A DNA stretch of 36,062 nucleotides, from the NCBI GenBank assembly GCA_005800795.1, contig SYEN01000232.1, positions 1-36,062 on the forward strand, in the 5' to 3' direction. The position numbers were made by a program, and so were the translations under genes. The notes beneath the pieces were generated by a model. It was not told the origin of the DNA and ran no database searches. It saw only the letters and a program-made list of their open reading frames with translations. Shown one piece after another: positions 1 through 8,112 of the stretch; positions within the stretch are counted from its first letter, which is position 1; the number at the start of each line of letters is the position of its first letter. Origin of the DNA: Burkholderiales bacterium (GTDB taxonomy: Bacteria; Pseudomonadota; Gammaproteobacteria; Burkholderiales; SG8-41).

Positions 1-1007
1 GCGGCATGCACTGCCTGAAGTACGGACTGACGGTGCATAATATTCTGAAGCTGCGCGCGTATACGGTTGAGGGCGAATTGCTCGAAATCGGCGGCGATGG
101 GTTGGATGCCGCCGGTTACGATCTGCTGGCGCTGCTCACCGGCTCCGAGGGGCTGCTGGCGGTGATCACCAAAATCACCGTCAAGCTGCTGCCCAAGCCG
201 CAGCGCGCGCAATGCGTGCTGGCGGCTTTTGATGACCTGGTAAAGGCCGGGCAGGCCGTGGCCAATATCATCGCCGCCGGCATCATCCCTGCTGGGCTTG
301 AAATGATGGACAAAATCACCACTGGCGCAGTGGAACCCTTCGTCAATGCCGGTTATCCGCTGGATGCGGAAGCGATTTTGCTGTGCGAGTCCGACGGCAC
401 TCCGGAGGAAGTCGCCGACGAGATCAAGCGCATGAAAGCCGTGATGCAGGCCAGCGGCGCGACTGAAGTGCGCGTGTCGCAAGACGAAACTGAGCGAGTC
501 CGGTTTTGGGCCGGGCGCAAGAATGCCTTTCCTGCGGCGGGCCGCTTGTCGCCGGATTATTACTGCATGGACGGCACCATCCCGAAGCGCGCGCTGCCGC
601 AAGTGCTCACCGCCATCGCCGACTTGTCAAAAGAGTACGGCCTGCGCTGCATGAACGTGTTTCACGCTGGCGACGGTAATTTGCATCCGCTGATTTTGTA
701 TGACGCCAACCAGCCAGGGGAGCTTGCGCGCACCGAAGAATTTGGCGCAAAGATTCTAAAACTGTCGATCGACGTCGGCGGCACCATCACCGGCGAACAC
801 GGCGTAGGCGTGGAAAAAATCGATTCCATGTGCGACCAGTTTCGTGCGCCGGAACTGGCGATATTTCACGCAGTGAAGCAGGCGTTTGACGCAGGCGGGC
901 AACTGAACCCCGGCAAGGCGGTGCCCACGCTGCACCGCTGCGCGGAGATGGGGCGCATGCATGTGCATGCGGGCGAGGAGAAGTTTCCCGAGTTGCCTCG
1001 GTTTTAG
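1..1007 (+). CDS. glcD: Glycolate oxidase FAD-linked subunit GlcD, 5' end cut by the window edge
   Basis: The frame of ORF 6..1007 stays open to position 1. The translation is the C-terminal part of an FAD-linked oxidase (GEHGVGVEK, LNPGKAV). glcE- and glcF-like genes follow in the E. coli glcDEF order. Confidence 0.85.
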   Translation, partial: GMHCLKYGLTVHNILKLRAYTVEGELLEIGGDGLDAAGYDLLALLTGSEGLLAVITKITVKLLPKPQRAQCVLAAFDDLVKAGQAVANIIAAGIIPAGLEMMDKITTGAVEPFVNAGYPLDAEAILLCESDGTPEEVADEIKRMKAVMQASGATEVRVSQDETERVRFWAGRKNAFPAAGRLSPDYYCMDGTIPKRALPQVLTAIADLSKEYGLRCMNVFHAGDGNLHPLILYDANQPGELARTEEFGAKILKLSIDVGGTITGEHGVGVEKIDSMCDQFRAPELAIFHAVKQAFDAGGQLNPGKAVPTLHRCAEMGRMHVHAGEEKFPELPRF

Positions 1008-1065
1008 TTGCGCCGTAGCCCACCACCAAGCCTCTATCGTGTCCACAAAACACAGTCACCCGACA

Positions 1066-1175
1066 CCGTCGTTCCCGCGCAGGCGGGAACCCATAACACA
1101 GTGTCACTTGAGGGCAAACTACCCCCATCCTACCTTCACCAAGGATGGGGATACCCGCCTGCGCGGGAATGACGG
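1066..1175. repeat. REP-like inverted doublet in the glcD-glcE spacer
   Basis: ccgtcgttcccgcgcaggcgggaac (1066-1090; 8-bp stem 1071-1078/1083-1090) and its inverted copy gatacccgcctgcgcgggaatgacgg (1150-1175) flank a third hairpin, ccccatcc/ggatgggg (1123-1130/1143-1150). Spurious ORFs across it read VIPAQAGIP, the usual translation artefact of this repeat class. Confidence 0.8.
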
Positions 1176-1202
1176 TATTTGTTTGCAACGGGTTTCTTAC
1201 TG

Positions 1203-2327
1203 ATGGAAGGCGTTGCAAATCAGCTTGCGGAAACCATCCGCGAGGCAAGCACAAATAAAACACCACTTCGAATAGTTGGCGGCGGCACCAAAGATTTCTA
1301 CGGCAATCCAACCACCGGTGAATTGTTGTGCACCAGCTCCTACCGCGGCATCGTCGATTACGAACCCACGGAGCTGGTGATTACCGCGCGCGCTGGTACG
1401 CCGCTGGCCGAAATTGAATCAACCTTGAAGGACAAGGGACAGATGCTGGCGTTTGAGCCACCGCATTTTTCTAAAGGCTTTCCCTCACCCCTAACCCCTC
1501 TCCCGGCGGGAGAGGGGAACAGTACGCTCGGCGGAACCATCGCCGCCGGACTGTCAGGCCCGCGCCGCCCCTACGCGGGCGCGGTGCGCGATCTGGTGCT
1601 GGGCGTTCGTATTCTCGACGGCACCGGCGCTGATTTGCGCTTTGGCGGACAAGTGATGAAGAACGTCGCGGGCTTTGATGTGTCGCGATTGATGGCAGGT
1701 GCAATGGGCACACTCGGCGTGATTCTCGAAGTGTCGCTGAAAACCCTGCCGCTGCCGCCTGCTGAGATCACGCTGCATCAACAGTGTAACGAAGCTGACG
1801 CCCTGCGCCTGATGAACGAGTGGGCCGGTCAGCCGTTGCCGGTTTCCGCAACGTGCTGGACGCATGGCGATTTGCGCATACGCCTGTCAGGTGCCGCCAG
1901 TGCCGTGGAAGCCGCGCGCAAGAAGCTAGGCGGCACTGTGGTGGATGCACCTCTGGCCAGCACACTCTGGAAAGGTGTGCGCGATCACACGGATGCGTAT
2001 TTCACCCGCAGCGGTGCGCTGTGGCGACTGTCGGTGAAATCGTCCGCGCCGGTAATCGTGCTGCCCGGCGTGCAGCGCCTGGAGTGGAGCGGCGCGCTGC
2101 GCTGGCTGCAAACTGATGCCAGTGCTGTGGCCGTGCGCGACGCCGCACAGAAGGCAGGCGGACACGCGACACTGTTTCGTTTGGATGACCACAGCGATGC
2201 CCTACGCAAAAATGGTGGCGTGTTTCATCCGCTATCGCCCGCGCTCGCCGCGATTCATCGCAAACTGAAACAGACCTTCGATCCGGTAGGCATACTGAAT
2301 CCTGGCCGCCTTTACCTCGATATCTAA
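1203..2327 (+). CDS. glcE: Glycolate oxidase FAD-binding subunit GlcE
   Basis: The track ORF starts at TTG 1179, inside the REP element. ATG 1203 gives MEGVANQLAETIREASTNKTPLRIVGGG, which lines up with the E. coli GlcE N-terminus as I recall it. Motifs: GQVMKNVAGFDVSRLM, GGHATLFR, LNPGRLY. Confidence 0.85.
   Translation: MEGVANQLAETIREASTNKTPLRIVGGGTKDFYGNPTTGELLCTSSYRGIVDYEPTELVITARAGTPLAEIESTLKDKGQMLAFEPPHFSKGFPSPLTPLPAGEGNSTLGGTIAAGLSGPRRPYAGAVRDLVLGVRILDGTGADLRFGGQVMKNVAGFDVSRLMAGAMGTLGVILEVSLKTLPLPPAEITLHQQCNEADALRLMNEWAGQPLPVSATCWTHGDLRIRLSGAASAVEAARKKLGGTVVDAPLASTLWKGVRDHTDAYFTRSGALWRLSVKSSAPVIVLPGVQRLEWSGALRWLQTDASAVAVRDAAQKAGGHATLFRLDDHSDALRKNGGVFHPLSPALAAIHRKLKQTFDPVGILNPGRLYLDI
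1472..1522. repeat. Palindromic REP-type element embedded in frame in glcE
   Basis: tccctcacccctaacccctctcccggcgggagaggggaac contains the perfect palindrome cccctctcccg-g-cgggagagggg (1495-1517). It is translated as GFPSPLTPLPAGEGN, and on the opposite strand as SPAGRGVRGEG. Confidence 0.7.
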
Positions 2328-2330
2328 AAT

Positions 2331-2352
2331 ACCAATAAAAACAAATACTTAT
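2331..2352 (-). repeat. AT-rich motif family, copy a
   Basis: The reverse complement of accaataaaaacaaatacttat is ATAAGTATTTGTTTTTATTGGT, which matches the consensus GTAAGTATTTGTTTTTATTGAC. It lies 18 nt upstream of the glcF start, in opposite orientation. Confidence 0.6.
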
Positions 2353-2369
2353 AACTGCTACCCTACCCC

Positions 2370-3623
2370 GTGGAAACCCGACTCGCCGCCGTTATCAAGA
2401 ACACGCCGCAAGGCGCAGAGGCCGAAAGCATCCTGCGCAAGTGCGTGCACTGCGGCTTTTGCACAGCGACGTGCCCGACCTATCAATTGCTCGGTGACGA
2501 ACTCGACGGCCCTCGCGGGCGCATTTACCTCATCAAGCAAGTGCTGGAAGGCGCGCCTGCTACGGCCAAGACGCAGCTGCATCTGGACCGCTGCCTCACC
2601 TGCCGCTCGTGCGAAACCACTTGTCCGTCGGGCGTGCATTACAGCCGCCTGCTCGACATCGGACGTGCTGAAGTCGAAAAACAGGTTGGCCGCACGCCAG
2701 CAGATGCGCTCGGGCGCGTGGCGCTGCGCTCGGTGGTGCCGTTTGCAGGCGTATTTGGATCGCTACTTAAATTGGGACAACTCGCACGGCCTCTGCTGCC
2801 TGCCGCACTCAAGCAAAAAGTGCAGCCGCGTGCAGCCAGTGCAAAACCCTGGCCGAAAAACAATCATCCGCGCAAGATGCTGGTGCTCGAAGGCTGCGCT
2901 CAACCCAGCCTGTCACCCGCCACCAATGCGGCCGCCGCGCGCGTGCTCGACCGCCTGGGCATCACGCTGCTGCGTGCCCCGGACGTGCGCGGCGCCGGTT
3001 GCTGTGGCGCGCTGTCGTTTCACCTGAATGCGCAAGGCGAAGCGCTCGATTTCATGCGCAGGAACATTGACGCATGGTGGCCGCATCTTGAAGCGGGCGC
3101 GGAACAAATCGTTATCACCGCCAGCGGCTGCGGCGTGATGGTTAAAGACTACGAGCACGCTTTGCAGCACGATTCGGCTTATGCGGACAAAGCCCAACGC
3201 GTGTCGGAATTGGCCTGTGACATTAGCGATGTCATAGCCGCTGAGTCTGCCGGACTGCAGTCGCTCCTCGCACCGCACGCCTCACGCCTTAACAACAAAA
3301 TCGCGTTTCATGCCCCCTGCACCTTGCAACATGGCATGAAGAAAAAGGGCGCAGTCGAAGCACTGCTCACCGAACTGGGCTTTGAACTCACCCCGATAGC
3401 CGACGCCCATTTGTGCTGCGGTTCCGCGGGTACGTATTCGATTTTGCAGGCGGAACTCGCCCAACAGCTGCGCGCGAACAAAATCGCCGCGCTCGAATCG
3501 GGCATGCCCCACGAGATTGTCACCGCCAACATCGGCTGCCAATCCCATCTGCAGGCGGCGACCGAGTTGCCAGTACGGCATTGGATTGAACTGCTGGATG
3601 ACACAATGACAACGCCCGCATAA
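2370..3623 (+). CDS. glcF: Glycolate oxidase iron-sulfur subunit GlcF
   Basis: GTG start. Two 4Fe-4S motifs, CVHCGFCTATCP and CLTCRSCETTCP. Two CCG-type cysteine regions, CCGALSF and CCGSAGTY. The N-terminal ~60 aa are nearly collinear with E. coli GlcF as I recall it. Confidence 0.9.
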   Translation: METRLAAVIKNTPQGAEAESILRKCVHCGFCTATCPTYQLLGDELDGPRGRIYLIKQVLEGAPATAKTQLHLDRCLTCRSCETTCPSGVHYSRLLDIGRAEVEKQVGRTPADALGRVALRSVVPFAGVFGSLLKLGQLARPLLPAALKQKVQPRAASAKPWPKNNHPRKMLVLEGCAQPSLSPATNAAAARVLDRLGITLLRAPDVRGAGCCGALSFHLNAQGEALDFMRRNIDAWWPHLEAGAEQIVITASGCGVMVKDYEHALQHDSAYADKAQRVSELACDISDVIAAESAGLQSLLAPHASRLNNKIAFHAPCTLQHGMKKKGAVEALLTELGFELTPIADAHLCCGSAGTYSILQAELAQQLRANKIAALESGMPHEIVTANIGCQSHLQAATELPVRHWIELLDDTMTTPA

Positions 3624-3668: not shown

Positions 3669-5321
3669 GTGATTACAGAAACGAAACAGCAGAAACCGCG
3701 CACCATGCGACAACTCGCCAAGAACTACGACTTCATTATCGTCGGTGCCGGCAGCGCGGGCTGTGTGCTGGCCAACCGGCTGACCGAATCAGGACAGCAC
3801 CGTGTGTTGTTGCTCGAGGCCGGGCCAGACAGCCGTCATCCGTGGCTGCGCATTCCGTTGGGTTACGGCAAGCTCTTCACCGACCGGCGTTTCAACTGGT
3901 GCTACCAGACTGAGCCGCAACCACATTGCGCGGGCCGCAACATCGTTGCGCCGCGCGGGCGCGTGCTCGGCGGTTCGAGTTCGATCAACGGCCTCATTTA
4001 CATTCGTGGCCAGAAGCAGGATTTCGATCACTGGCGGCAATTGGGCAACACCGGCTGGGGCTTTGATGACGTATTGCCCTACTTTCGCAAAGCGGAAGAC
4101 AACGAGCGCGGCGCCGACGCATGGCATGGCGCGGGCGGCCCGCTCGGTGTGTCCGACTTGCGCGACCGCCACCCGCTGGCCGAGGCGTGGGTCGATGCCG
4201 CCGTGGAGTCCGGCTATCCGCGTAACGCGGATTTCAACGGTGCTACGCAGGAAGGCGCGGGCCTTTACCAGACGACAATGCGGCGCGGCGTGCGCAGTTC
4301 CACCGCCGCGGCCTACCTGGCACCGGTGCGCAACCTCGCCAATCTGCATGTGGTATCGGAAGCGCTGGCCACCCGCATTCTGTTCGAAGGTCGGCATGCG
4401 ACAGGCGTCGAATACACCGTTGGCGGCGTGAAACACGTCGCGCACGCCAACGTCGAGGTCATCGTAGCGGCCGGGGCATTTAACTCGCCGCAGCTTTTGC
4501 AACTTTCGGGGCTGGGTCCGGCAGATCTCATGAGGGCGCACGGCATCCCCGTGATCGCGGACTTGCCCGGCGTCGGCGCGGAACTCAGCGATCACTACTT
4601 CACCCGCATCATCCTGCGCGCGAAAGAGCCGCTGTCGCTCAACGATGCGGTGCGTCAATGGCATCGTGGCGCCGCGGCGGCGCTGCGCTACACCTTCCAG
4701 CGCCGCGGTTATTTCGCCATCCCCGCGATTTCGGCCGGCTGCTTTCTGCGCGCGCACCCCACCGCCGCCACACCCGACATTCAGGCGTCCCTCGGCCTCT
4801 ACTCAGTGCAGAACATCGGCGAGACCTTGCATCAGTTTTCCGGCGTCACTGCGGTGTGCTGCCTGCTACGTCCAGAGAGCAAAGGCAACGTGCGTATCCA
4901 GTCTGCCGATCCACAGCAGGCACCGGCGATCAACCCGAACTACCTGGCCTCCGAGAAAGACTGTGACACGATGATTCACGGCCTGCGCGCCGTGCGGCGC
5001 ATCCTGCAGGCACCTGCCATCAAACAGCACATCGCTGAGGAATTTGAGCCTGGGCCAGCTTGTGCCAGTGATGACGAACTGCTCGAGTATGCGCGTCAAC
5101 GCGGATCAACGGTCTACCACCCGGTCAGCACCTGCCGCATGGGGCAAGATGACACAGCGGTCGTCGACGCGCGTTTGCGCGTGCGCGGCTTTGCGGGCCT
5201 GCGCGTGATCGATGCATCCGTGATGCCGTCGCTGGTATCGGGCAATACCAACGCGGCGACTATCATGATTGCGGAAAAAGGTGCCCAAATGGTTCTTGAA
5301 GACGCGAAGGCACGAGCGTAG
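3669..5321 (+). CDS. GMC-family FAD oxidoreductase (choline/alcohol dehydrogenase-like)
   Basis: Motifs: [18 protein letters not shown] dinucleotide fold, [17 protein letters not shown] signature, and HPVSTCRMG in the C-terminal active-site region. The start is GTG 3669; ATG 3705 is an alternative and neither has a strong SD. Confidence 0.85.
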
Positions 5322-5346: not shown

Positions 5347-5449
5347 GTACCTGGTACCGAACTTTAGGTGTACCGCCTAAGCCATTGAGGTACTAGTACT
5401 TTTCAGTACAGCGGCGTACTATCCCCCGAACTTCGGTACGGGGAGGTAC
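5347..5449. promoter_or_regulatory. Array of nine GTAC palindromes filling the methyltransferase leader
   Basis: GTAC starts at 5347, 5354, 5370, 5390, 5396, 5406, 5416, 5436 and 5446. The sites at 5396/5406/5416/5436/5446 share one 10-bp phase. The array includes GGTACC (5353-5358) and the 10-bp palindrome GTACTAGTAC (5390-5399). The last site sits between SD GGAGG (5442-5446) and ATG 5453. Confidence 0.6.
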
Positions 5450-5452
5450 ACG

Positions 5453-6688
5453 ATGCTCGGCTTTGAATCGGCACAGGCAACCGGTAGTCTGCGGGTTACC
5501 GGCACATCCATACTGACTAGGCGCGCGCGCGCGCGCGAGGTCGCCACTAAGGACATTCCCGTCTATCAGGGCGAGTTGTGGACGGCATTACAGCGGCAGG
5601 CCAGCAGCATCCACGAGATTTCCTACCGCGCGTGTTACAAGCCGCAACTGCCCGCGTATTTCATCGAGCGGCTTACCGAACCCGGCGACATGGTTTACGA
5701 CCCATTCAGCGGGCGCGGCACCACGGCTGTTGAGGCCGCGCTGCACGGTCGCTGTGTCATCGCCAACGACGTCAATCCGTTGTCGGCGATGCTCACGCAG
5801 CCGCGACTGGAATTGCCCTCGATTTTGCAAATCGAAACGCGGCTTGACACGTTGCGCTTCAAGGTAAAGCAACAACGCGATATCGATCTGTCGATGTTCT
5901 ACCACCGCGATACCGAACGCGAACTGCTGGCACTGCGCCGTTACCTTACCCTGCGGCGCGCGGACTACACCGAAGACGCCACAGACCGCTGGATACGCAT
6001 GGTGGCCACCAACCGGCTGACCGGACATTCTCCGGGATTCTTCTCCGTCTACACCCTGCCACCGAATCAGGCGGCCTCGCCCGAAAACCAGATAAAAATC
6101 AACGAGCGGCTGAAGCAAAAGCCCGGATATCGCGACGTACGCGAGCTGATCCTGAAAAAATCCCTGCAACTGCAAAGCAAACTCACCCCGCAACAGCGCG
6201 AAAAACTGAAAGCCGCCGCCGACAGTGCCACCTTCATGAACGACAGCGCCGCCAGCACGCTCGGCATTCCCACCGCAGCGGTCAAACTCACCGTGACCTC
6301 GCCGCCGTTTCTGGACGTGGTGCAATACGCCAAGGACAACTGGCTGCGCTGCTGGTTTAACGAACTCGATGCCGCCGATATCGCTGCGCGCATCACCATG
6401 AGCCGCACCGTATCGCATTGGTCCACCGCGATGCTCGACGTATTCCGCGAGCTGTATCGTGTGACCGCACCCAATGGCTGGGTGGCATTTGAAGTCGGCG
6501 AAGTGCGCGGCGGCAAAATCAAACTCGACGAGGTCGTCGCCCCCATCGGCATCGCAGCGGGATTCGCCTGTATGGCGGTGGCGATCAACACACAGAGGTT
6601 CACCAAAACCGCGAATATCTGGGGCGTTTCGAACAACAGCAAGGGTACTAACTCGAACCGGATTGTGCTGTTTCGCAAACCCGTGTAA
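5453..6688 (+). CDS. Solitary N4/N6-type DNA methyltransferase (motif I before motif IV)
   Basis: SD GGAGG lies 6 nt before the ATG. The AdoMet-binding motif DPFSGRGTT is at residues 83-91 (followed by AVEAALHGRCVIANDVNP). The catalytic motif TSPPF is at residues 282-286. No restriction-enzyme-like ORF is adjacent. Confidence 0.8.
   Translation: MLGFESAQATGSLRVTGTSILTRRARAREVATKDIPVYQGELWTALQRQASSIHEISYRACYKPQLPAYFIERLTEPGDMVYDPFSGRGTTAVEAALHGRCVIANDVNPLSAMLTQPRLELPSILQIETRLDTLRFKVKQQRDIDLSMFYHRDTERELLALRRYLTLRRADYTEDATDRWIRMVATNRLTGHSPGFFSVYTLPPNQAASPENQIKINERLKQKPGYRDVRELILKKSLQLQSKLTPQQREKLKAAADSATFMNDSAASTLGIPTAAVKLTVTSPPFLDVVQYAKDNWLRCWFNELDAADIAARITMSRTVSHWSTAMLDVFRELYRVTAPNGWVAFEVGEVRGGKIKLDEVVAPIGIAAGFACMAVAINTQRFTKTANIWGVSNNSKGTNSNRIVLFRKPV
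5521..5537. repeat. (GC)8 dinucleotide tract in the 5' part of the methyltransferase ORF
   Basis: gcgcgcgcgcgcgcgcg encodes RRARARE (codons 23-29) and lies upstream of the conserved methyltransferase core. Confidence 0.9.
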
Positions 6689-6723
6689 TAAGGCACCGGC
6701 TGGTCATCGCGCAAAAATACGCC

Positions 6724-8112
6724 CTAAAAAATATCCTTTAAAAACAGATACATATCATCCATTTCGTGCAGCAACGCCACGCGTTCGCGCAGTTGTTCAT
6801 ACTTCAGCTCATTCAACGGCCAGCGGCTCTGCAGAAAACAGTCGCGAAATTTGTCCTCGGCAGCTTGCGGTGAAATTGGGCGGCCCTCACTGCCCGCGAC
6901 ATCCTTGATGCGGCAGGACACCTCGCCATGGTTGCGTGTCTGCATACGCAACTCTACCGGCCCGCGTGTGCCGGTTTGCGTGGCATCCACTTTCACTACA
7001 ATTTTGCTCATGTGCACGGCAATGGCGGGATCGCGCGCCGCATCCGGCTGAATTTCGGCAAGGCCCAGCCGGCGGCGCACCAGCGCGCAGGCGATCGAGT
7101 AACGCAGATTGAATTGCGCGGCCACCTGCGCATCGCCGCTGGGGTCGTAATCCCCGCCGACAATGCGCTCGATATACGGTGTGATGGTGGCTTCCACCGA
7201 TAACACGTCATCGGGCTTGAGATCGTATTGATTGACCAGTTGCAGCGTGGCATCAATCGCCGTGTGATTGCAACCGCAACTCGGATACAGCTTGATGGTA
7301 GCCTGATCATTGTCAAAGCGCGTGCCGAGTTCGTGCAGCAGCACCGATGGATCGCCCGGCTGATACAGGGCATAGAAGCCGAATCTGCCTTCAATCACAT
7401 CCGGCGGCGCGGTGATGCCGCGTTGCGCGAGCAGCGCAGACTGCACGCCGGAGCGTGCGGCAAACGCCGCCAGCATGCGCTTGGCCAGCGAGGGTTGTAT
7501 GTTGGCTTGCTGTGTGCCCGATGCCTGCAAAAACGCCAGCCCCAGTGCGTGTTGCGTCTGCCCGACATCGAGCTTCAGCAAACGCGCGCAGGCCGCAGCC
7601 ACGCCAAACCCGGCCATTGCTGCCGTGTAATGAAAACCGCGATTCGGGTAAGCCGCAGCCGCGCCAAAGCGATGCGTAATGTCGCAACCCAGCACCAGCG
7701 CAGCCAGAAACTCCCGGCCCGAAGCATGCTGACGCTCGGCCATCGCCAGCACTGCCGGCAGCACGGCCACATAGGCATGTACCGCCACACCCAAACCAAT
7801 TGAGTCGTATTCGATGGCAGCGGCTGTTGTACTGTTAAGGAATGCCGCCGACGCTGCGGGCAGGCGCCCGCCAGAGCCACCAGCGCCAGCAGAAACACCG
7901 TATCCCCACACCGCGGCATCGGCACGTCCACCTTCTTCCGCCAGCATATCGAAGGTCTCACGGCACCCCGGCGCGTCCGCACCCGCCCACGCTGACGCGA
8001 GCGTATCCAGCATCAACAAACGAGCAGTGTCGAGATTGGCGGTGGGTATCGCCGCGAACGGCGTTTCTATCGCGTGCTGCGCCAACCGACCTGTGATGCT
8101 GCTCACGCCCAT
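6724..8112 (-). CDS. MmgE/PrpD-family protein (2-methylcitrate dehydratase-like)
   Basis: 462-aa ORF with the length and overall pattern of the MmgE/PrpD family (N-terminal LLMLDTLASAWAG, C-terminal PSCGCNHTAIDA region). Last gene of a minus-strand cluster. Confidence 0.7.
   Translation of the reverse strand: MGVSSITGRLAQHAIETPFAAIPTANLDTARLLMLDTLASAWAGADAPGCRETFDMLAEEGGRADAAVWGYGVSAGAGGSGGRLPAASAAFLNSTTAAAIEYDSIGLGVAVHAYVAVLPAVLAMAERQHASGREFLAALVLGCDITHRFGAAAAYPNRGFHYTAAMAGFGVAAACARLLKLDVGQTQHALGLAFLQASGTQQANIQPSLAKRMLAAFAARSGVQSALLAQRGITAPPDVIEGRFGFYALYQPGDPSVLLHELGTRFDNDQATIKLYPSCGCNHTAIDATLQLVNQYDLKPDDVLSVEATITPYIERIVGGDYDPSGDAQVAAQFNLRYSIACALVRRRLGLAEIQPDAARDPAIAVHMSKIVVKVDATQTGTRGPVELRMQTRNHGEVSCRIKDVAGSEGRPISPQAAEDKFRDCFLQSRWPLNELKYEQLRERVALLHEMDDMYLFLKDIF

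Follow-up and report, generated by a model that had tools for sequence, protein, structure and literature searches.

We analyzed a stretch of 36,062 nucleotides, hereafter the window, that covers positions 1 to 36,062 of the forward strand of contig SYEN01000232.1 in the Burkholderiales bacterium assembly GCA_005800795.1 (GTDB lineage Bacteria; Pseudomonadota; Gammaproteobacteria; Burkholderiales; SG8-41), with attention to a DNA methyltransferase gene at positions 5453–6688 and to the short leader in front of it. The ORF (open reading frame) starts with an ATG codon and carries a GGAGG Shine-Dalgarno sequence approximately 8 nt 5′ of it. The features of the gene and of its leader are:

5453..6688, plus strand: orphan Type II DNA methyltransferase gene of 411 amino acids, predicted to act on GTAC as an N4-cytosine enzyme (from the ORF, PF01555, PDLC03325 and orthologues).
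5612..5770, plus strand: S-adenosylmethionine (AdoMet)-binding module with motif X (HEISYRACYKPQLPAYFIERL), motif I (DPFSGRGTT, residues 83–91) and motif II (IANDVNP) (from alignment to the beta-class enzymes 2zie and PvuII 1boo, invariant columns and the AlphaFold2 (AF2) model).
5786..6226, plus strand: helical insert of approximately 150 residues between strands beta2 and beta4, a putative target-recognition domain (TRD), containing the invariant loop WIRMVATNRLTGHSPGFFSVYTLPPNQA (residues 180–207) (from the AF2 model and alignments).
6296..6310, plus strand: catalytic motif IV, TSPPF, residues 282–286, right behind strand 277–282 (aligns to SPPF/SPPY of PvuII/TTHA0409).
6599..6664, plus strand: invariant C-terminal loop FTKTANIWGVxNNxxGTNxNRI, residues 383–404 (from invariant columns and a low predicted local distance difference test (pLDDT) score at residues 383–399).
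5347..5449, plus strand: leader of 103 bp with nine GTAC sites, the densest GTAC cluster of the assembly.
5394..5422, plus strand: promoter-like module TAGTAC-N17-TACTAT with one GTAC in each hexamer, conserved across genera.

The original prediction for this locus, made from the letters of the DNA alone, had described a solitary N4/N6-type DNA methyltransferase, and the profile searches place the protein in that family. The Pfam N6_N4_Mtase profile (PF01555) matches with 51.7 bits, above its cut-off of 26.7 (E = 1.4e-13), and the PADLOC MTase_II model PDLC03325 matches over its full length, residues 32–409 covering profile positions 46–423 of 426 (E = 2.4e-147). Weak matches to the UPF0020/RlmKL-like and Trm5 families were obtained as well. 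The ORF, the motif coordinates, the flanking GMC oxidoreductase and convergent MmgE/PrpD genes and the 35-nt gap to the latter were all found as the prediction had them. Motifs were aligned over 30 homologues at 61–93% identity and 13 further relatives down to 44%. Residues D83, P84, F85, G87, R88, G89, T90 and T91 of motif I are invariant in both sets, and TSPPF (T282, S283, P284, P285 and F286) is invariant in all 44 of the 44 aligned sequences, so that the earlier argument from SPPF to an N4-cytosine enzyme gains from a serine variant that never changes. The best PDB sequence matches (M.PvuII 1boo, TTHA0409 2zie, M.RsrI, M.MboIIA and CcrM) share motif X/I (xPFxGxGTT) and motif IV ((S/D)PP(F/Y)) with the protein. 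The loops at residues 189–208 and 383–399, which are invariant and modeled with low confidence, are the best candidates for DNA contact, and judging from its conservation the C-terminal loop (residues 383–404) is probably a DNA-contact element.

The order of these motifs deserves attention because motif I (residues 83–91) lies approximately 198 residues N-terminal of motif IV (residues 282–286). Residues 40–108 align to the C-terminal part of the N6_N4_Mtase profile (positions 141–212 of 221), and when the protein is aligned to beta-class structures, residues 43–119 fall on chain positions 205–277 and residues 268–293 on chain positions 32–57. The motif order is thus a circular permutation of that in the beta class, although the significant alignment to beta-class structures is limited to the motif X/I block of approximately 70 residues. 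Whereas beta-class enzymes run in the order IV–VIII, TRD, X, I, the present enzyme runs X-I-II, putative TRD, IV–VIII. The AF2 model (pLDDT 75; predicted template modeling score (pTM) 0.80) has a strand at residues 80–83, the motif I loop, a helix at 90–97, a strand at 101–105 and an all-helical insert at 112–258, followed in the C-terminal half by a strand at 277–282 leading into SPPF and by strands at 338–348, 372–379 and 402–408. In this model the strand order is that of a canonical class-I methyltransferase with a large beta2–beta4 insert, that is, the alpha order. The alpha class, as Malone and colleagues reportedly defined it in 1995, has motifs X and I–III first, then the TRD and then motifs IV–VIII, and the predicted order of the present enzyme, with the helical insert as putative TRD, agrees with it. 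The alpha-like permutation proposed earlier is thus real by both the alignments and the structural model, but it is not peculiar to this protein. Several other REBASE-derived Type II models match the methyltransferase with motif I likewise near their N-termini, and together with the full-length PDLC03325 match this means that a whole catalogued family is normally built in this order.

In Foldseek searches against the PDB the model was collinear from end to end only with non-permuted class-I Rossmann methyltransferases (Trm11, NNMT; template modeling scores on the query (TMq) of 0.30–0.36). The tRNA m2G10 methyltransferase Trm11 was the top match (TMq 0.31), and the beta-class 2zie aligned over 146 columns. 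Because these searches returned generic Rossmann methyltransferases and no close DNA methyltransferase structure, the structure supports the topology of the enzyme and not its specificity.

The N-terminal extension of the ORF also contains a (GC)8 tract (window positions 5521–5537) that encodes RRARARE; (GC)8 occurs 2 times in the assembly. The GC run of the genus orthologues measures 6–16 nt and is mostly interrupted, and the peptide SRRARxRE is kept. The tract is unlikely to be a phase-variation switch because its length is not conserved while the RRARxRE peptide is, and it seems to be a side effect of the Arg/Ala codons.

The gene stands without a restriction partner, as had been proposed. 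Its flanks hold no endonuclease, specificity-subunit or C-protein gene, and the PADLOC REase_II model PDLC03511, which identifies the endonucleases described below, has no significant match in the assembly, which is 62% complete (E = 0.36). The same model matches 1 of 118 genomes of the GTDB family, as a broken copy in genome G136, and an endonuclease of this type was found at 0 of 80 orthologous loci. Distant homologues of the methyltransferase tell more about its origin. At 4 of 13 distant loci a protein of 206–224 amino acids is encoded behind the methyltransferase, and in three cases the start and stop codons of the two genes overlap by 4 bp. The proteins are homologous to one another and match PDLC03511 with E values of 1e-28 to 1e-38. 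At the remaining 9 distant loci the methyltransferase is an orphan among housekeeping genes. The partner endonuclease family corresponds to Pfam PF27324, “MjaV”, according to a precomputed Pfam label. Our own Pfam and NCBIfam profile searches of the partner endonucleases gave no family, a PDB sequence search with a partner endonuclease gave nothing significant, and an exact-sequence cluster look-up of the proteins linked to restriction-modification (R-M) returned no informative names. Among 14 control genomes, PDLC03325 and PDLC03511 both match only Methanocaldococcus jannaschii. Besides these four loci, such a pair was found in a metagenome-assembled genome (MAG) of Rhodocyclaceae (L156), where an MjaV endonuclease sits right behind a methyltransferase 63% identical to ours, between ispG and hisS. 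Because MjaV-type endonucleases accompany distant homologues, the methyltransferase descends from an R-M system. At a further locus (L159:1706–3672) an MjaV-family endonuclease accompanies a second methyltransferase subfamily (23% identical, alpha order, 430 amino acids, TSPPY), and this pair adjoins another N6_N4 methyltransferase and an HNH gene.

The partner family also bears on the target. MjaV recognizes GTAC, where both M.MjaV and M.RsaI produce N4-methylcytosine (m4C) (PMC11033074, PMC2588503, PMC3287169). In two R-M-positive genomes GTAC falls further below expectation than any other of the sixteen 4-bp palindromes, with observed-to-expected ratios (O/E) of 0.17 and 0.15, and its O/E is 0.82–1.0 in orphan-carrying genomes and 0.78 in the present one. 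The putative recognition loops are invariant between the orphan methyltransferases and the R-M-linked relatives from GTAC-avoiding genomes. The GTAC cluster in the gene's own leader, described below, is a further, indirect indication of GTAC specificity. We thus make a strong prediction that GTAC is the target of the methyltransferase, and with moderate confidence we predict that its product is m4C; the N4 position of cytosine is favored because the serine of motif IV is invariant and because of the published data on M.MjaV and M.RsaI (PMC11033074, PMC3287169).

Orthologues are widespread in the lineage. Within the genus, 18 of 20 other genomes carry a full-length orthologue; of the remaining two, one has pieces of it at contig ends and the other gave only a weak, unrelated match. 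Across the GTDB family the methyltransferase is present in 134 of 151 genomes (89%), in 74 of the 79 high-quality ones (94%) and in 12 of 13 genera, almost always as a single copy and with 61–94% identity for full-length matches. The genomes that carry it are MAGs of uncultured Betaproteobacteria/Burkholderiales, whose habitats are lakes, groundwater, sediment and soil. Outside the family the gene becomes rare: other families of the order, sampled with approximately 390 high-quality genomes, yielded 3 clear orthologues (>50% identity), in two families, and elsewhere in the class 10 of 400 genomes, mostly small ones, had a match at 45–62% identity. A plasmid collection contained three distant matches (36–41% identity), annotated as “DNA methyltransferase”. 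A methyltransferase has been called persistent when at least 75% of the genomes of a taxon carry it and the taxon comprises at least 5 genomes (PMC10609329), and with the fractions given above the methyltransferase of this family is persistent in that sense. In a maximum-likelihood tree the family sequences form a single clade (92/77 support), and the R-M-linked and sporadic relatives are scattered outside it. Within the genus, the ratio of nonsynonymous to synonymous substitution rates (dN/dS) is 0.05–0.13 for the methyltransferase and 0.11–0.13 for GlcF at similar dS of approximately 1, and the methyltransferase value falls between those of GlcD and GlcE, so the gene evolves like its metabolic neighbors.

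In a second family of the order (f2; L020/G025 and L111/G210) there is an orphan that is 54–56% identical to the present one and lies in a different but mutually conserved neighborhood. These copies have no GTAC in their upstream region, and they may represent an independent domestication.

The leader of the methyltransferase gene is unusual in its content of the predicted target. Its nine-site GTAC cluster is the densest in the 4.27-Mb assembly, where the next densest clusters contain 5 sites. At least 3 GTAC sites lie within the 320 nt upstream of the gene in 74 of 80 orthologous loci, where approximately 0.6 are expected; the same interval contains 0–3 at the distant loci and 0 at the R-M-linked relatives. 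Part of this signal is a module with the family consensus CTTGTACTTTT-N12-GCGTACnAT, which comprises a −35-like TTGTAC and a −10-like TACnAT 17 nt apart, each of them with a GTAC. A loose pattern of the paired GTAC sites has 5 matches at 4 places in the assembly, and only the one described here precedes a methyltransferase gene; the strict family consensus has no match in the assembly, the leader itself included. In four loci of other genera (L039, L054, L061 and L090) the CTTGTACTTTT-N12-GCGTAC module occurs as two tandem copies approximately 70–80 nt apart, an arrangement that suggests, from its sequence, duplicated promoters or operator-like units. One GTAC stands in the stretch from the Shine-Dalgarno sequence (GGGGAGG) to the ATG at window positions 5438–5452 (GGAG-GTAC-ACG-ATG), and its position is kept in most genus orthologues. 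The two runner-up clusters of 5 sites each both look unrelated to the methyltransferase: the one at C155:6901–6932 is a tandem (GTACGAAYA)x4 array of a 9-bp repeat just 5′ of a 90-amino-acid ORF, and the one at C164:1109–1178 lies in an AT-rich, gene-poor stretch with GTACG repeats.

Around the methyltransferase gene and its leader, the window contains these neighbors:

3..3623, plus strand: the glycolate oxidase genes glcD (partial), glcE and glcF, conserved neighbors on the upstream side in the GTDB family (from Pfam).
3669..5321, plus strand: GMC oxidoreductase gene, between glcF and the methyltransferase leader (from Pfam GMC_oxred_N and GMC_oxred_C).
6724..8112, minus strand: convergent MmgE/PrpD-family gene, which leaves no room for an endonuclease gene (from Pfam).

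The gap between the stop codons of the methyltransferase and MmgE/PrpD genes spans positions 6689–6723. Of the 61 loci of the family that could be assessed, 47 have glcF as the immediate upstream gene in the same orientation, and other genomes have a spacer of 86–284 nt between glcF and the methyltransferase. The GMC gene was found only here and in the closest relative, G001 (1 of 61 other loci), and is a recent, lineage-specific insertion between glcF and the methyltransferase leader. The downstream neighbor varies across the family, with PrpD in that place in 12 of 67 loci. In one genus (L067, L074, L080, L081, L085, L088 and L089) a protein of approximately 185 amino acids is encoded 0–11 nt 3′ of the methyltransferase; its signal-peptide-like N-terminus and its staphylococcal-nuclease-like motifs (DGDTL...RLxGIDAPE) suggest a homologue of secreted thermonucleases and not a restriction enzyme.

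Altogether, the distribution, synteny, tree and dN/dS of the methyltransferase are those of a core gene that is passed on vertically and kept by purifying selection. The original prediction had named a case that would speak against a true orphan, namely that homologues are paired with an endonuclease that was simply lost here. Its first half holds, in that distant homologues are indeed paired, but the second does not, because the orphan state extends over the whole family and is under purifying selection. The orphan state of the methyltransferase is ancient, common to the family and selectively maintained.

The reading that we consider probable is that the gene encodes a persistent and active stand-alone methyltransferase of the M.MjaV kind that came out of an R-M system, likely modifies GTAC at N4 of cytosine, and is preceded by a leader of its own target sites. 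The ancestor would have been the modification half of a GTAC R-M pair in which the M gene was followed by an R gene of the MjaV type. This one uncultured Burkholderiales family would have lost the endonuclease in its common ancestor, or would never have fixed it there, and the methyltransferase would have settled 3′ of glcDEF, to be inherited from then on as a vertical, single-copy core gene under purifying selection. The enzyme would methylate N4 of the cytosine in the GTAC palindrome on both strands. Its own promoter-like leader would be built of GTAC, with one site in each of the −35-like and −10-like hexamers and extra copies in this genus, and by methylating this promoter the enzyme may set its own transcription, through either the fully methylated state or the hemimethylated state that follows replication, in a feedback of the CcrM/CfrBI type. 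We have moderate confidence in such autoregulation through the GTAC sites of the leader. A more far-reaching version, which we regard as possible and no more than tentative, is that the enzyme is an m4C counterpart of Dam and CcrM in which hemimethylation switches its own transcription, so that it would work as an oscillator or homeostat coupling methylation to the cell cycle.

Several observations weigh against parts of this reading. The leader module matches the sigma-70 consensus at 7 of 12 positions and a simple promoter scan makes no call; the promoter role and the methylation feedback are therefore what we infer from the conservation of the sites. The intergenic DNA of this genome shows no enrichment in GTAC (non-coding/coding ratio 0.89) and no other gene has the module as a conserved element, so there is no sign of a wider regulon. 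The regulatory role that the original prediction had favored over a defensive one thus finds a strong hint in the possible self-regulation through the leader, but genome-wide intergenic enrichment does not back it. Of the four R-M-positive genomes, the other two are only mildly depleted in GTAC (O/E 0.69, rank 2, and 0.80, rank 4). Both the target and the modified base are things that we infer for hosts that are uncultured, and enzymes that produce N6-methyladenine (m6A) at GTAC exist (M.CviQI, M.PabI and M.HpyAXII; PMC2588503, PMC3287169). As the assembly is 62% complete, the absence of an endonuclease rests mainly on the family-wide search.

The alternative that survives best, although we judge it unlikely, gives the gene a protective and not a regulatory function: as a “molecular vaccine”, pre-methylation of GTAC would guard the cell against selfish GTAC R-M elements, against the endonucleases of phages and plasmids, and against post-segregational killing. 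MjaV-type pairs with related methyltransferases do circulate in the same order of bacteria (62% identity in G254 and 63% in the Rhodocyclaceae MAG L156), and the lack of intergenic GTAC enrichment and of a regulon signature is in line with this idea. Genome G136 offers a case in point: at G136:C18:45759–47272 (L114) a 118-amino-acid, stop-containing MjaV-type fragment lies beside a second, 53%-identical methyltransferase, and the resident orthologue is also present. The second copy is apparently a later invading GTAC R-M element with a decaying R gene, and a decayed R gene is the outcome expected in a cell with a resident methylase. Protection leaves unexplained, however, why the enzyme's own sites form a conserved promoter; only one invading copy was seen; and for orphans of the vaccine type, Dcm among them, conservation as strict as the 94% found here across 12 genera is not usual. 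Protective and regulatory roles are not mutually exclusive.

A second alternative, to which we give a low probability, keeps the same orphan and the same GTAC target but makes the product GTm6AC instead of m4C. Motif IV by itself is no strict determinant of the target base. SPPF is nevertheless invariant in the aligned sequences, and its serine is the variant of N4-cytosine enzymes; one of these, PvuII, ranks with the best PDB sequence matches. The m6A enzymes M.CviQI, M.PabI and M.HpyAXII carry (D/N)PPY, not SPPF. Although several GTAC methyltransferases thus make m6A (PMC2588503, PMC3287169), the partner endonuclease is of the MjaV family, whose cognate M.MjaV makes m4C (PMC11033074).

A housekeeping RNA methyltransferase (making, for example, m2G or m6A) or a protein amino-methyltransferase that shares the (S/D/N)PP(F/Y) chemistry is very improbable. 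The weak UPF0020/RlmKL-like and Trm5 matches, the Foldseek rank of Trm11 and the housekeeping-like conservation could be read that way, but the match to a Type II DNA methyltransferase model is full-length and the structural matches are generic Rossmann-fold ones. Relatives at 44–63% identity, with the recognition loops invariant, are translationally coupled to a restriction endonuclease; GTAC is depleted in R-M hosts and clustered in the methyltransferase leader; and hardly any other family of the order has the gene, which would be odd for a universal RNA-modification enzyme. A functionless leftover from an R-M system that has only just lost its endonuclease, as the pairing of distant homologues might suggest, is hardly credible given an orphan arrangement common to 12 of 13 genera with synteny kept, a family that forms one clade, a dN/dS of approximately 0.1 that equals that of the neighboring metabolic genes at a dS of approximately 1, and catalytic motifs that are all invariant.

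A persistent, active orphan with a self-targeted leader can be set beside several known systems. M.MjaV/R.MjaV and M.RsaI resemble it in profile-level family (PDLC03325, and PDLC03511/PF27324 in its relatives), in SPPF and in the predicted GTAC target and m4C product, and in the relatives of the present gene the M gene precedes the R gene. Unlike these enzymes, the present gene has no endonuclease and is a vertical core gene instead of a sporadic, mobile defense module, and unlike its R-M-linked relatives, with 0 GTAC in 320 nt, it has a GTAC-rich leader. Persistent m4C orphans have been described in archaea, namely HG10 of Nitrososphaerales and HG18 of Methanoregula/Methanospirillum, both acting on GTAC, and HG1 of Halobacteria, which acts on CTAG (PMC10609329). 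They share with the present enzyme the orphan state, a 4-bp palindromic target, m4C (predicted here), presence in at least 75% of a taxon and sporadic relatives elsewhere. The GTAC orphans HG10 and HG18 are the closest by evolutionary behavior, a likeness drawn from their description and with a host that here is bacterial. The motif clusters of the haloarchaeal orphan sit upstream of orc/cdc6-type origin-binding genes (Blow et al. 2016, PMC4752239; PMC10609329), whereas the cluster of target sites described here lies at the promoter-like leader of the enzyme's own gene.

CcrM of Alphaproteobacteria and Dam of Gammaproteobacteria are alike in being clade-wide, single-copy enzymes that have no endonuclease and descend from R-M systems. 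In Caulobacter, CcrM has its own target sites within its own promoter. Both differ from the present enzyme in that they are N6-adenine enzymes acting on GANTC and GATC, respectively, belong to the beta class (CcrM) and to PF02086 (Dam), and have regulatory roles shown by experiment; the present clade in turn is confined to one family and is not accompanied by genome-wide intergenic enrichment of its sites. In CfrBI-type R-M systems, methylation of the enzyme's own site in the promoter of the M gene tunes expression. The likeness lies in a predicted target within the promoter-like region of the enzyme's own gene, where feedback is possible, but CfrBI-type systems comprise both M and R and balance the two, while the putative loop described here would control an orphan alone. 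Conserved orphan methyltransferases are common, and regulatory ones are marked by target sites that stay reproducibly unmethylated (Blow et al. 2016, PMC4752239). The present enzyme is a new example of this known kind and not a new kind of enzyme. A literature search, with subscription journals outside its reach, found no description of a persistent orphan methyltransferase of Betaproteobacteria with a GTAC target.

Lineage-wide orphans of the Dam/CcrM type are the classic instances of bacterial epigenetic control. To our knowledge, nearly all of the well-studied lineage-wide orphan methyltransferases make m6A. Catalogued cases of persistent m4C orphans come mainly from archaea so far (PMC10609329), and the present gene adds a bacterial case, found in 94% of high-quality genomes across 12 genera, with an R-M ancestry that can be traced to an MjaV-type GTAC system. 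Its predicted 4-bp target is easily assayed since RsaI is blocked by methylation, and although the hosts are uncultured, the hypothesis that the enzyme methylates the hexamers of its own promoter is testable on a plasmid in E. coli. The specificity call, GTAC and probably m4C, would also apply to thousands of metagenomic proteins that are now labeled “hypothetical” or “DNA methylase”. With its family-wide persistence, its R-M ancestry and a promoter-like leader made of its own predicted sites, the methyltransferase of this Burkholderiales family may offer a good, testable model of bacterial m4C epigenetics.

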